Shown: positions 33,865-60,390, counted from the stretch's first letter. The stretch is DNA of 64,000 bases from a virus (IMGVR_UViG_3300024270_000010); one strand, 5' to 3'. Program-made: numbers and translations. The notes: generated by a model from the letters alone, not told the origin.

Positions 33865-33935
33865 TTTTGGTTAGAAAATTTCTAAATCGCTTTTAGATTT
33901 GGGGTGTCGGTTGTCTCAGTGTCAGCGGCCGGAGC
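33865..33935. repeat. Conserved about 70-nt intergenic element, copy 1 (second copy at 60300..60390)
   Basis: Shares aaatttctaaatc-ctttt-...tttgggkt.tcgg...ccggagcag with the 60.3-kb copy; lies between a terminator and a promoter. Confidence 0.45.
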
Positions 33936-33939
33936 AGAT

Positions 33940-33970
33940 AAAAGAAAAATGGCTCCCGAAGGAGCCATTT
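33940..33970 (-). terminator. Rho-independent terminator (aaatggctcccgaaggagccattt)
   Basis: Stem-loop plus U-run, 3' of the 33972..34331 gene. Confidence 0.55.
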
Positions 33971-33971
33971 A

Positions 33972-34331
33972 TTATCCAAAAATCTTATTGAAATAATTAC
34001 CAATCATTTCCTCGGTAATGCCCATTGCATAAGGCTTTGCGACAATTTGACCGTTTTCATATATGGCACCATAAATTGCGCCGTCCTTATAAATCTGGTA
34101 AGGGGTTAGATAACCACCATGTCCAGCAGTTTCAATATAGAGTACAACTCTGGTATTGATATCATACACGACATAATTGCCATATTCAATTTCCTCAATT
34201 ATGGCAAAACGATTATCAATAACTTCAACCTCTGCGCCATCAACAACTTGAGTGGCAGAACAAGCAGCCAAAGTGCCAATACAGAGTACGATAATCAAAA
34301 TTATCAGCCAACAAATAGTATATCTTTTCAT
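33972..34331 (-). CDS. lipoprotein (119 aa)
   Basis: Signal peptide with lipobox LAAC. Confidence 0.45.
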   Translation of the reverse strand: MKRYTICWLIILIIVLCIGTLAACSATQVVDGAEVEVIDNRFAIIEEIEYGNYVVYDINTRVVLYIETAGHGGYLTPYQIYKDGAIYGAIYENGQIVAKPYAMGITEEMIGNYFNKIFG

Positions 34332-34408
34332 GTTATCTCCTTATCCTGCGCAGGCGGCCATCAAAACTAGGCCGATAAAAATCCACGGAATTATTGCCCA
34401 CCATTCCA

Positions 34409-35314
34409 TTATGCCATAGCCTCCCTCAGCATTCTCGCACGAGCGGGATGCCGCAACTTGCGAATTGCCTTATTTTCGATCTGACGAATACGTTCCTTGG
34501 TAATGCCGTAGACCTTACCAACTTCTTCTAGGGTCATTGCCTTCTCGTGGTCAATGCCGAAACGCATCTTCATAATCTCACCTTCACGAGTGGGAAGAGT
34601 ATCCAGAACCGCACGGACAATCTGGCTGTTAGCTTCCTTGACAAGGTTGCCGTAGCCACTTTCAGCATTATGGTCTGCTACCAGGTCACCAACACTGGTT
34701 TCACCGTCTTCATCAACGGCCACATCCAGAGAAGATACTGCCTGAGAAATGTCCAGAATGGTCTGAACCTTTTCCAAATCTTCATTCAGATACTTGGCGA
34801 TTTCTTCATCGGTCGGCTGACGATGATTTTTCAGAAGTAGTTCATTGGTTGCCTTGCGGATTTTGCCCAGAAGCTCAACCATATTTGCGGGAATGCGAAT
34901 GGTGCGAGACTGGTCACCGAGCGCACGAGAAATAGACTGGCGAATCCAGTAGGTAGCATAGGTAGAGAATCTCCAACCCTTAGTACCATCATACTTCTGA
35001 GCGGCCTTTATCAGACCGAGATTGCCCTCCTGGATGAGATCAAGCAGGGGCAGACCGCAACCATAATATCTCTTTGCGATGGGAACAACCAGAAGTAGAT
35101 TACAGCTTACCAGTTCATTGATTGCGTCCTGGTCGCCCTTGAGCGCCTTTACGCTCAATTCTTTCTCCTGGTCAAAATTCAAACGGGGGTGATTACCGAT
35201 AGACTTCAGATAGGCTTTTACACCATCGAGGACTACCACATCGGCAACAGTAGCCTCGAAATCATTGAGAGCTTCCTGGGCCTCATCTTCCATAATAATT
35301 ACATTTTCTTCCAT
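34409..35314 (-). CDS. Sigma-70 family RNA polymerase sigma factor (regions 2-4)
   Basis: Region 2 YATYWIRQSI, region 4 HTH TLEEVGKVYGITKERIRQIENKAIRKL; strong GGGAGGAG RBS; 301 aa. Confidence 0.8.
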   Translation of the reverse strand: MEENVIIMEDEAQEALNDFEATVADVVVLDGVKAYLKSIGNHPRLNFDQEKELSVKALKGDQDAINELVSCNLLLVVPIAKRYYGCGLPLLDLIQEGNLGLIKAAQKYDGTKGWRFSTYATYWIRQSISRALGDQSRTIRIPANMVELLGKIRKATNELLLKNHRQPTDEEIAKYLNEDLEKVQTILDISQAVSSLDVAVDEDGETSVGDLVADHNAESGYGNLVKEANSQIVRAVLDTLPTREGEIMKMRFGIDHEKAMTLEEVGKVYGITKERIRQIENKAIRKLRHPARARMLREAMA

Positions 35315-35352
35315 TATTATGCTCCTCCCTTACTTTCTCATTTTCTATATAT

Positions 35353-35381
35353 ATTATATCATATTTTTTTATAAAAATCAA
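35353..35381 (-). promoter_or_regulatory. Class-II cassette promoter upstream of the sigma factor gene
   Basis: TTGATTtttataaaaaaatatgaTATAAT. Confidence 0.6.
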
Positions 35382-35387
35382 ATAAGC

Positions 35388-35415
35388 CCTTCCGAATGGG
35401 AAGGGCTTATATTTT
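35388..35415 (-). terminator. Rho-independent terminator (agcccttccgaatgggaagggct)
   Basis: Stem-loop plus U-run, 3' of 35424..35978. Confidence 0.55.
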
Positions 35416-35423
35416 ATCGGGAC

Positions 35424-58105: not shown

Positions 58106-58123
58106 AGAACTTCCTCCTTATAT

Positions 58124-58152
58124 ATTTTAACATAAAAATTTTATAAAGTCAA
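58124..58152 (-). promoter_or_regulatory. sigma70-type promoter TTGACTttataaaatttttatgtTAAAAT
   Basis: TTGACT-N17-TAAAAT directly downstream of the terminator at 58164-58198. Confidence 0.45.
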
Positions 58153-58163
58153 TAAAAAAAGGG

Positions 58164-58198
58164 AGAGGGACAGTTATTTTATCCCTCTCCCTTAAATT
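58164..58198 (-). terminator. Rho-independent terminator (agggagagggacagttattttatccctctccct)
   Basis: 10-bp stem; T-run on the minus strand; 3' of the 58207..59435 gene. Confidence 0.5.
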
Positions 58199-58206
58199 AT
58201 TTTAAA

Positions 58207-59435
58207 TTAAGCGTTAGCAATAGCAGCTTCAATTTCAGCAGTAGTTAAAGCAATTACTCTAGTATTAATTTCATTATCAGTATATGCCTTAGCATCAATT
58301 AATGCTTGTGCGGCAGCACCGTATGCATCATAAGTATTGGCGGGAATAGTATCCTGCTTCTTTGCTAATTCCTCATCAACATAAGTCTTATCGGCCTTTT
58401 TAGCAATTTCAGTAGCATTAGCGCTAACAGCATTCTGACGAGCAGTAACTTCAGCCTCTAAATCAGCCTGAGAAGCCTTTGAAGCGATAGCGTTAGACAA
58501 TTCAGTCTTATCAGCAGTCTTTAGATAATCGCCTTCAACAACAGCCAAACGACTATCAACGCCATTAATAGCATCAGACAATTCAGTCTTATCAGCAGCT
58601 TTTAGATAGTCATCTTCAACAGCCTTAACACGACTAGCCAAAGCAGTTAAATCAGCAGCCTTAGCATAATCACCAATAGACAAAGCAGTAATAGCGTCAG
58701 CAACATAAGCGCTAACAGTCTTATCACCAGTATCAACCTTACTCTGCAAAGCTGCAATAGCTTCATTCATTGCAGAAGCATCATCTGGATGATCCTGAAT
58801 CCAAGCAGCGATTTCAGCTAGAGTATCTAGAGACTCCTTAGCGTCCTCTGTGATTAACTGCTTAGCCAATTCTTCGTTAGCAATGGCACGAACAGACTTA
58901 CCAGCGTCATCGCCCTCTAGAGTAGCAACACGACCAACTAAAGCAGTGTCATCATAAGTAGCAGCAGCCTGAGCGTCAGCGATCATCTGTACAACAGTCT
59001 TACCATCAGCAACTTCACCGACCAAAGATTCTAGTGCGTCAACTTCACCCTGTGCAGTGACAGCCTTGTCATCAGCAGCCTTTGCGGCAGCAGCATTAGC
59101 TTCTTCTGCAGCCTTAGCACGAAGAATTTCAGTATCTAAAGCAGCTTTAACAGAAGCAGCAGACTCAGAAGAACCACCATTAGCAGCATTTAGAGTTTCT
59201 TCTGCTTTCTTGTTAATATAAGCAACAATAGACTGTTGATCAGTATAACCTTCTGGAATTTCACCAACATAAGAACGAAGATCTTCAATTTCTAATCCAC
59301 GAGCAGTAGCCTCGCTTGCAATAGCTTCCGCAATTGCCTCATCTCGAGCAGTAGCTTCAGCAGCAATTTTTTCAGCGATCTTGGACCATAAAGTACTTAC
59401 GCCCTATTGGTCTAAAAATTTCTTTAAATCAGCCA
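58207..59435 (-). CDS. Ala/Asp/Lys-rich coiled-coil structural protein (scaffold- or fibre-like), about 409 aa, TAG at codon 11 (59403-59405)
   Basis: AAGGAGA RBS, ATG 59435: MADLKKFLDQ[TAG]GVSTLWSKIAEK... in frame with the 272-aa ORF; repeated DYLKAADKTELS units. Confidence 0.5.
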
Positions 59436-59466
59436 TTTTTATTATCTCCTTTATTTTTTATTTTTT

Positions 59467-59928
59467 TTATTCGCAAATCTCAAGAATTTCTGTATGAGTT
59501 AAAGGAACTAATTTATTGAATAATTCTTGAGCATATGCCTTTGTAGCGTATTCTTCCAAAGCAATTTCTGGAATCTCAATTTTATTTAGAGCTTCTTGTA
59601 ATTGTTCTTGAGTAACTAAGTCACTATCTACAAGCACTTCATACTCATATAGCTCTTCATTCCATTGATATAACTTTTTCTCTTGGAATGCTTTATAGAT
59701 GACATTTACATCACCAATTGCAGGAAAATTATAATGAGTATTAGCATTAATAACTAATACTTTATCTTCTCCAAGATACTTTAAATCCAACCATTCATTG
59801 ACACCGTCTCCAATTTTTAATTTACCAGTATCAATTTCAAATCCAGGCTCACCAGGGGCTAAAACAGGATTTAAAGTGATCCAACTTGAAGCTTTACCTC
59901 TTTTTAATTGAATTGTATATGTAGCCAT
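59467..59928 (-). CDS. Tail fibre N-terminal domain protein (153 aa)
   Basis: GAGGAGG RBS, ATG 59928. MATYTIQLKRGKASSWITLNPVLAPGEPGFEIDTGKLKIGDGVNEWLDL matches the conserved tail-fibre/hyaluronidase-type N-terminal motif (T.QLRRG.A..W...NPVL..GE.G.E.DTGK.KIGDG...W). Confidence 0.55.
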   Translation of the reverse strand: MATYTIQLKRGKASSWITLNPVLAPGEPGFEIDTGKLKIGDGVNEWLDLKYLGEDKVLVINANTHYNFPAIGDVNVIYKAFQEKKLYQWNEELYEYEVLVDSDLVTQEQLQEALNKIEIPEIALEEYATKAYAQELFNKLVPLTHTEILEICE

Positions 59929-59943
59929 ACTTTTCCTCCTCAA

Positions 59944-60234
59944 TTAAAAAGGATCAGAGCCATCAATAGAGCCGCCGTCATAAATAAGATCACCAGATGG
60001 GGGATTATTTCCACCAGAATTACCTCCAGAAGAGCTTGACATACAATATGGATTAATTTCAATCCATTGCTTAGAGCCATTTAACATATAATATTTAGAA
60101 CTACTAATAATAAAAATAGTGCTACCAGGAGTTAATCTATTTTTATCTAATTGTTTTAAATCATCAATAGTATCTAAATCAAAATGCTTAATACCATATG
60201 TTATATGACCACTATTTGAATGAATATTAACCAT
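59944..60234 (-). CDS. hypothetical Gly/Ser-rich protein (about 96 aa)
   Basis: AAGGAGGG RBS, ATG 60234. Confidence 0.4.
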   Translation of the reverse strand: MVNIHSNSGHITYGIKHFDLDTIDDLKQLDKNRLTPGSTIFIISSSKYYMLNGSKQWIEINPYCMSSSSGGNSGGNNPPSGDLIYDGGSIDGSDPF

Positions 60235-60299
60235 TATAACCCTCCTTTTTATGTAAGTAAATATCTTCATAATATTATAAAAAATTCATTGAGCATCTT

Positions 60300-60390
60300 A
60301 ATACTTTTAGTCCAAAAATTTCTAAATCACTTTTTACTTTTGGGTTTTCGGCACTTTCGACTGGCACCGACCGGAGCAGGTTATCTGTTA
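60300..60390. repeat. Conserved intergenic element, copy 2 (see 33865..33935), in the divergent region between the minus-strand late genes and the single plus-strand gene
   Basis: Shared blocks aaatttctaaatc, ctttt, tttgggtt.tcgg, ccggagcag. Confidence 0.45.

Follow-up and report, generated by a model that had tools for sequence, protein, structure and literature searches.

A conserved ~70-nt element coincides with contig ends in an uncultured jumbo phage and may be a cos-like DNA cleavage site

The virus IMGVR_UViG_3300024270_000010 is represented here by a 64,000-nt stretch of DNA (hereafter the window), which is part of a large uncultured phage genome of ~206 kb and harbors two copies, A and B, of a ~70-nt homologous element. 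Contigs from this phage and its relatives end at fixed columns within the element, and the two termini of a single 205,925-nt contig both lie inside copy B and have 23 nt in common. On these grounds we favor, with moderate confidence, a reading in which the element is a sequence-specific, staggered double-strand cleavage site that makes phage DNA ends, in the simplest case the terminase cohesive-end site (cos) of a ~205.9-kb phage.

The two copies are direct repeats 26 kb apart, and their sense strand is the minus strand, as for the neighboring genes. In this orientation the element reads CTGCTCCGG...GATTTAGAAATTTT, and its columns are counted from the first C of CTGCTCCGG. Copy B (60310..60379) reads CTGCT + CCGGTCGGTGCCAGTCGAAAGTG + CCGAAAACCCAAAAGTAAAAAGTGATTTAGAAATTTTTGG and comprises a left conserved block, CTGCT (60375..60379, consensus.tGCT/CcG), a 23-nt core (columns 6-28, 60352..60374), and a right conserved block, CCGAAAACCCAAA...GATTTAGAAATTTTTGG (60310..60351). 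Copy A (33868..33937), whose sequence is identical in a 183,267-nt contig, has diverged and is 2 nt shorter, its core measuring 22 nt (33911..33932). An initial annotation of the window had described two non-coding stretches with shared ordered blocks and differing intervening bases, and both parts of that description hold: the block AAATTTCTAAATC is found exactly at 33876-33888 and 60316-60328 and the block CCGGAGCAG exactly at 33929-33937 and 60371-60379, neither has another exact match in the window, the distance from the former to the latter is 40 nt in A and 42 nt in B, and the middle of the unit has diverged. Local alignment of the two intergenic regions gives a score of 51, which none of 2000 dinucleotide shuffles reached (mean 20.8, sd 3.2, maximum 39). 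A profile search of the window with the element likewise returns copies B (E = 5.6e-19) and A (E = 1.8e-11) and no third copy, a candidate near 14.7 kb being insignificant (score 17 vs. 12.2±2.0 for shuffles). In an ENA contig of 178,585 nt (L173) the right block of copy B is polymorphic, with AAAAAATGATTTAG in place of AAAAAGTGATTTAG.

The positions at which contigs end carry most of the argument. The 205,925-nt record, Ga0216340_10000199, is an assembly of the same phage from the Joint Genome Institute (JGI) and contributes two of our loci, its start (L174) and its end (L088): it begins with CCGGTCGG..., where CCGGTCGGTGCCAGTCGAAAGTGCCGAAAACCC corresponds to column 6 of copy B, and finishes with ...GTCGAAAGTG, where ...CTGCTCCGGTCGGTGCCAGTCGAAAGTG corresponds to column 28 of the same copy, the 23 nt shared by the two ends being window positions 60352-60374. 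Six other contigs start exactly at column 6, across five sequence versions of the element. A 19,223-nt JGI contig (L091) begins ccggccgctgacactgag... at column 6 of copy A (window position 33932); L038/L057 also start at column 6, as do L006 and L037 within the coding version of the element described below, and L194 does so in yet another version. The starts of L006, L037, and L038 are true contig ends. In each case the start lies 23 nt before CCGAAAACCC (22 nt in A), and column 6 is directly 5' of a conserved CCGR motif.

Such a pattern resembles what has been described for phages with cohesive ends, where assemblers let contigs terminate at the cos ends, 5' overhangs are filled in during end repair so that the cohesive sequence is present at both ends, and reads from circular or replicating DNA may bridge the site in other samples (PMC5557969). 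ENA contigs assembled with MEGAHIT (k141) indeed run through copy B and break instead 141 nt (equal to k) inside a 174-nt exact repeat at 57294-57467. One independent MEGAHIT contig of 202,962 nt starts 141 nt inside this repeat, and if its other end is placed likewise in the sister repeat, the genome unit would amount to 205,904 nt, as compared with 205,925 - 23 = 205,902 nt from the JGI contig, an agreement that is purely arithmetic. The two repeats (54244-54417 and 57294-57467; 174 nt, 100% identity) belong to two paralogous genes of the fiber region, and the sequences around them (53242-54634 vs. 56277-57675) are ~75-80% identical, which suggests recent gene conversion. Two technical causes of the contig ends were considered and dismissed by reasoning only: adapter trimming would yield a gap rather than a 23-nt overlap, and k-mer read filtering would call for a single filter word, which does not fit cores that vary by lineage. 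The same 23 nt stand at both contig ends, as filled-in 5' overhangs would produce; an assembly would show the same for a blunt terminal repeat of 23 bp.

In the proposed mechanism, the sense strand would be cut between columns 5 and 6, CTGCT^CCGG (60375/60374 in B), and the opposite strand would be cut opposite columns 28/29, just before CCGAAAACCC (60352/60351), with 23-nt 5' protruding cohesive ends (CCGGTCGGTGCCAGTCGAAAGTG) as the product. Both putative cuts fall immediately 5' of conserved CCGR motifs, and the core between them, which would serve as the cohesive-end or terminal-overlap sequence, varies between lineages, with the flanks conserved. By analogy with lambda cosB, the flanks, CTGCT on one side and ~40 nt (CCGAAAACCCAAA..AAAAAGTGATTTAGAAATTTTT) on the other, would make up the recognition region, and the conserved flank CCGAAAACCCAAA...GATTTAGAAATTTTT is likely its main part. 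Copy B is where the full-length contig terminates, and copy A, which also coincides with a contig end, is a diverged duplicate inserted at an ordinary terminator-promoter junction.

Further insight comes from relatives in which the element is part of a gene. When viral contigs were scanned with an 18-nt piece of the element, the ~70 nt proved to be coding in many of the recovered loci, and a profile search collected 327 small hypothetical proteins (105-154 aa, without a Pfam domain) that have LLRP....(T/A)ENPKxKSDLEIF in common, flanked by N- and C-terminal parts that vary. In relatives of ~180-210 kb, whose early-promoter consensus is the same as the window's, this hinge is encoded by a stretch homologous to the element. 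The locus has a fixed order, DnaB ... RecJ, (lysozyme), the small gene, a small open reading frame (ORF), a UvrD/PIF1-type helicase, and PolIII alpha, and the constant place between RecJ and the helicase identifies the 105-, 119-, and 148-aa proteins as positional orthologs, on which ground a selfish, RPE-like insert in otherwise unrelated genes was rejected. Mosaicism of the N- and C-terminal halves is seen around the hinge of the small gene, whose coding copies keep the two CCGR motifs whatever amino acids these specify. Within the window there is no full-length homolog, the replication module lying outside it. In one contig with both a coding and a non-coding copy, the two cores agree at 15/23 positions, and the copies are not homogenized with each other. 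The small protein has no significant terminase match. Its hinge, KSDLEIFG, and the C-terminal tails of P0003, P0004, P0103, and P0110 (..DNDFIIF*, ..NNMFLIDL*) resemble acidic/hydrophobic sliding-clamp-binding peptides of the kind represented by the T4 polymerase tail, and the protein may be a replisome adaptor.

Many further copies, both coding and non-coding, were found in relatives. Seven loci (L032, L064, L066, L075, L076, L081, and L085) have the same order of DUF2828 stop codon, terminator, ~30-nt spacer, and element, followed by tail-fiber or other genes. Because the first searches used the conserved block as seed, their sample was biased, and to escape this bias 80 DUF2828 loci were fetched by protein alone, the element not being used as bait. 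It again lies downstream of DUF2828 in L093 (DUF2828 88% identical), L095 (81%), L096/L097 (75%), L102-104 (66%), and L107 (63%), and is absent within 2.5 kb of ~70 more distant DUF2828 loci; across the loci sampled the association is limited to a subclade. In the protein-fetched copies CTGCTCCGRCCGG and CCGAAAACCCAAA persist amid unalignable spacers, and the final 300 nt of the adjoining gene are less well conserved than the element. Its left 36 nt, which lie outside every search pattern, are 61-97% identical and ungapped, and its right block is the most conserved part among 33 distinct copies, coding or not. The consensus is.tGCT/CcGgcCGg.....g.cG.aa..a/CCGAaAAccCAAA..aAAAAagtGaTTtagAAaTTTTt, where the slashes mark the break points.

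This conservation ignores the reading frame: copy A is frameshifted, the left block is read in another frame in L075, and there is an in-frame TAA in L085 and an in-frame TAG in L096, which argues that the non-coding copies are under constraint at the level of DNA. The copy in L093 is visibly degenerate. Related contigs carry a coding copy together with one or two non-coding ones. In L102 the element is an intercistronic spacer and in L075 it stands directly 5' of a ribosome-binding site, positions that imply transcription in the sense direction there; in L064, L066, L081, and L096 a terminator and a convergently oriented gene come after it. The initial annotation had considered that the likeness of A and B might stem from a shared promoter fragment, an explanation that does not apply, as the promoters after the two copies differ. 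Seven human-gut contigs (L068-L070, L073, L077, L078, and L084) carry a constant ..GATTTCTTCGTGTTCCGAAAATAAAAAGTGATTTAGAAATTTTTTAGGCGTGAGG.. joined to different left flanks in the manner of a mobile-element end; 27 nt are common to this family and the right block of the element, by homology or chance, and the family is probably unrelated to it.

A cleavage site would account for the conservation of the hinge, which exceeds that of any other part of a fast-evolving small protein, and for the retention of the same bases by non-coding copies regardless of frame. It would also explain the clustering of cassettes and mosaic junctions at the element's borders, where recombinogenic ends would lead one to expect them. 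A recombination signal, one of the roles offered by the initial annotation, is in this light retained in part, as a consequence visible in the edge cassettes and mosaic gene halves. Of the protein-binding regulatory site it proposed, the DNA site recognized by a protein finds support in another sense, the evidence pointing to cleavage by a nuclease or terminase rather than to a regulatory or sigma-factor function.

Judged by their reading frames, both window copies are non-coding. Read in the frame of its homologs, copy A lacks 2 nt and is interrupted by stop codons, and copy B is open for 47 codons without a usable start codon or ribosome-binding site. Among the non-coding copies, changes hit all three codon positions, in an alignment inspected by eye rather than counted. 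A hidden small ORF or read-through from DUF2828 was rejected, as the frame relative to the DUF2828 stop varies and some copies contain stops or frameshifts, and a plus-strand ORF over copy B (60220-60411) has no counterpart at copy A. Inspection for known sigma-factor promoters inside the element (sigma-70, the sporulation sigmas, SigD, SigB, ECF, and sigma-54) found none that fit. A template/variable repeat pair of a diversity-generating retroelement was likewise set aside, as the differences between the copies are not adenine-specific and both copies are non-coding; no reverse transcriptase occurs among the genes scanned, and the Mtd_N match near B reflects only a common N-terminal domain of fiber proteins. 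Nor do the copies delimit a Gin/Hin-type invertible segment, being direct repeats 26 kb apart with no inverted copy beside the 244-aa gene next to B by profile search; in L064 the partial second copy next to the reversed gene falls short of significance. A replication origin was rejected as well, the GC skew having no inflection at A or B.

The RNA-level tests were equally unrewarding. Searches of Rfam 15 and for tRNA and tmRNA, even at E up to 10, gave no match at gathering level; the best sub-threshold Rfam matches reach ~25 bits against cut-offs of 45-50 and lie mostly over the neighboring terminator. Single-sequence folds of both strands do not beat shuffles (z from -0.4 to +0.8), apart from one outlier caused by a local hairpin. 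RNAalifold on 12 diverged non-coding copies yields -2.6 (sense) and -3.8 kcal/mol (antisense), the consensus fold being one 4-bp stem with a single compensatory change, which is all that covariation analysis of these copies provides. The element itself has no convincing promoter on either strand, and a terminator downstream of it occurs in L064, L066, and L081 only. The small RNA contemplated by the initial annotation is thus not supported, given the lack of Rfam or tRNA matches, fold z-scores near zero, and the weak consensus fold.

Comparison with known packaging systems shows both why a cos is attractive and where it fits poorly. Like the cos sites of lambda (cosQ-cosN-cosB) and of P2 and 186, the element would define genome ends of fixed sequence through a staggered cut with 5' cohesive ends; its overhang is relatively G+C-rich (15/23 bases), its one-sided conserved flank could by analogy bind a small terminase subunit, and assemblies of virion DNA end at such sites with the overhang duplicated (PMC5557969). 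It differs from them in the length of the overlap (23 nt vs. 12 nt for lambda, 19 nt for P2), in having neither rotational symmetry nor adjoining terminase genes in the window, in occurring in two copies, up to three in related contigs, and, in relatives, in lying in frame within a protein hinge. The pac sites of P22 (gene 3), SPP1 (gene 1), and P1 (pacA) lie inside small-terminase genes and direct headful packaging with permuted ends. They resemble the present case in that a packaging site overlaps a small-protein gene, with bases under both DNA and protein constraint, and differ in that the ends seen here are precise and that the small protein, encoded between RecJ and the helicase, is no recognizable terminase. 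In T5 and the phiKMV-like phages, genomes carry several sequence-specific nicks in one strand, and the phiKMV consensus ends in CTCCGG. The several copies of a short conserved break sequence, with CTCCGG at the break, recall this arrangement, a resemblance that in the case of phiKMV spans 6 nt only; one-strand nicks would not end contigs, whereas here both strands are apparently cut, 23 nt apart.

Several observations weigh against a terminase cos. The termini are read from contig ends alone, and all contigs ending in the element are JGI assemblies, whereas ENA assemblies run through it; ends confined to JGI contigs are expected if replicating or circular DNA was sampled elsewhere, are also compatible with a pipeline effect, and count against the proposal. 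A cos is normally single-copy, but the window has two copies and related contigs two or three, ends are seen at A, B-type, and hinge copies alike, and no natural phage with multiple cos sites came up in a literature search. In relatives the site is part of a replication-module gene remote from any recognizable terminase gene, and the window contains no terminase gene. The 23-nt overlap exceeds the longest cohesive end cited, 19 nt in phage P2, and is much shorter than the shortest direct terminal repeat, 131 bp (PMC5557969). Finally, the putative nick sites show no rotational symmetry.

Some of these points would be accommodated by a serious rival, a packaging-independent nuclease or recombination hotspot, to which we assign a small but real share of probability. 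Here the element would be the target of a homing or nicking HNH endonuclease, or of an enzyme that starts recombination-dependent replication, and all its copies would be cut in a fraction of the molecules. Ends at several kinds of copy (A, B-type, and coding hinge) and several copies per genome fit such an enzyme well, as do the abundance of HNH, GIY-YIG, and NUMOD3 genes in these phages, one of them beside B, the mosaic halves of the small gene, and the cassettes at either edge of the element. Yet the HNH gene beside B is recent and absent from relatives that still have the element, a genome that encodes a homing nuclease usually has the target sites destroyed or protected, and a one-unit contig with both ends in B is a prediction of cos packaging. 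Somewhat less probable in our estimation is cis-regulatory DNA or a leader RNA at the boundaries of the fiber and exonuclease operons, with the contig ends unrelated to function. The element usually follows a terminator directly and precedes a promoter or ribosome-binding site by 15-30 nt, it is transcribed in sense in L102 and L075, and its sequence is strongly conserved without RNA structure, all of which would suit a regulatory role. Against this, the terminator and convergent gene after the element in L064, L066, L081, and L096 leave nothing downstream to regulate, the element stands at 1/16 early promoters and contains no known sigma consensus, and neither the fixed-column contig ends nor the conservation inside the coding hinge would be accounted for.

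Two further explanations are improbable. A small non-coding RNA, acting as partner of the DUF2828 (TROVE-like) protein after the fashion of Y RNA and Ro, or as an antisense regulator of the small gene, is hinted at by the position directly downstream of DUF2828 in at least eight relatives and between two terminators in L064, L066, and L081, by the complementarity to a coding sequence elsewhere in related genomes, and by the presence in this phage of a vault-like protein and an RNA ligase. The likeness to Y RNA/Ro60 (TROVE) is confined to a conserved non-coding segment beside a gene annotated as TROVE-like and RNA-binding: the element differs in having no comparable stem, tRNA-like domain, Rfam match, or covariation, and in an association that holds in a subclade only. 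Any such RNA would moreover have to do without a fold distinguishable from shuffles or a recognizable promoter of its own on either strand, without the element near ~70 distant DUF2828 genes, and with cores of coding and non-coding copies that match at only 15 of 23 positions in one contig. The least probable explanation is a neutral relic, in which a hinge fragment was copied into intergenic DNA and is decaying there, its conservation an artifact of the search. Clear homology to the coding segment, the frameshift in A, the degenerate copy in L093, and the initial seeding with the conserved block speak for a relic; but copies found through DUF2828 alone are recognizable at 63-75% protein identity with unalignable flanks, the left 36 nt outside the search patterns are 61-97% identical without gaps, the copy boundaries are the same in all lineages, and contig ends at a single column would be left unexplained.

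If the element is indeed a cos-like cleavage site, it fixes the ends, the unit (~205.9 kb), and the map origin of an abundant uncultured jumbo phage, provides a sequence signature by which the genome termini of relatives could be located from assemblies alone, and explains the junction at B as a swap point of tail-fiber and endonuclease cassettes. It would also be an unusual cos, with a very long overhang, a recognition sequence that is the most conserved part of a protein, and several copies per genome, which raises the questions of how terminase picks among sites and how packaging signals move within a genome. A more far-reaching version, which we put forward tentatively and regard as rather doubtful, holds that a group of uncultured ~180-210-kb phages from gut or rumen has 23-nt 5' cohesive ends and a portable ~70-bp recognition cassette, hinge-embedded or intergenic, giving two to three cleavable ends and packaging of alternative, permuted full-length genomes; the small hinge gene would then straddle the ends of virion DNA. 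More generally, an intergenic repeat that is conserved in metagenome contigs of phages can be a packaging site and not an RNA.

In the window, nearly all genes lie on the minus strand and include gyrase A and B, NAD-dependent ligase, PhoH, NAMPT, NAD synthase, Sir2, Thg1, RNA ligase, an RNase T-like exonuclease, a sigma-70-family factor, a protein with a Major Vault Protein (MVP) shoulder, a DUF2828/DUF7788 protein, and several HNH endonucleases. Proteins identical to those of the window occur on 183-206 kb contigs from many samples. No near match to the phage was found among GenBank phages, the best DUF2828 match being 42% identical (Bacillus phages), and a scan of species genomes returned matches at chance level only.

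Copy A lies, as the initial annotation stated, between a terminator and a promoter, both on the minus strand: the intrinsic terminator of the upstream 119-aa gene (33947..33970) ends 9 nt ahead of it, and the early promoter TTGATT-17-TATAAT (33827..33855) follows. The window contains at least 16 near-identical early promoters of this kind (TTGATTTTTATAAAAAAATATGATATAAT), most of them directly 3' of a terminator hairpin, with -35 boxes on the minus strand at 63829, 52752, 47518, 44905, 41739, 39764, 35381, 33855, 29973, 29239, 26153, 22008, 20559, 19231, 18262, and 2124; the one at 33855 is the sole one of the 16 with an insert, copy A, between terminator and -35 box. Mobile cassettes of promoter and stem-loop repeats, known as PeSL, occur in T4-like phages, and the at least 16 near-identical terminator-promoter junctions, one of which contains copy A, are reminiscent of these; the element differs in being an extra ~95-nt insert in one junction rather than the repeated promoter or stem-loop. 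A relative whose exonuclease is 97% identical (L002) is rearranged exactly at one early promoter, that beside copy A.

Copy B, again as originally described, occupies the divergent region between the minus-strand fiber genes and the only reverse-oriented gene of the window, which encodes a 244-aa protein (60457..61191, plus strand) and abuts the left edge of the element; in L064, L066, L081, and L096 this reversed gene is found on the opposite side. Downstream of B, a promoter-like TTAAGA-16-TATAAT (60274..60301, minus strand), conserved in L032, precedes the genes for a 96-aa protein and the Mtd_N fiber proteins. This is the window's sole strand switch and the border between conserved and hypervariable genes, with cassettes inserted at either edge. 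On the far side, the DUF2828/DUF7788 gene (62202..63713, minus strand) is the last conserved gene before the element in this subclade, and is separated from it by an HNH homing-endonuclease cassette (61337..61945, minus strand) that is absent here in relatives. Remnants of an earlier DUF2828 3' end (..QKLDSERYAVIK*) and of its terminator persist at 61253..61325 (minus strand), the footprint expected from co-conversion on insertion of the cassette into the 3' end of DUF2828; the cassette and the reversed 244-aa gene were both inserted between DUF2828 and B.

Several other features of these phages are of interest in their own right. An 833-aa protein (44943-47444) matches the shoulder and repeat domains of MVP with E = 8e-22, and the DUF2828/DUF7788 protein, classed as RNA-binding by PHROGs, is encoded ~2 kb from the MVP-like gene in L085; a vault-like particle in a phage would deserve a study of its own. 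A cluster at 22491-28564 encodes NAD synthase, an NAMPT-like protein, Sir2, and a phosphoribosyltransferase, and may represent an NAD+ reconstitution module against host defense. There are also hints of TAG-to-Gln recoding in part of the phage group: L029 has TAG near position 445 (minus strand) where P0001 has Q, the gene at 6001-6360 in L054 does not give its recorded product under table 11, a fiber gene in L057 is interrupted by TAG at 307-309, and L096 has an in-frame TAG near 1575. Lastly, three RNA genes lie at positions 1-215, 206-296, and 592-663 of L032: two for tRNAs and one for a bacterial class-A RNase P RNA, which scores 125 bits and is cut short by the contig end.

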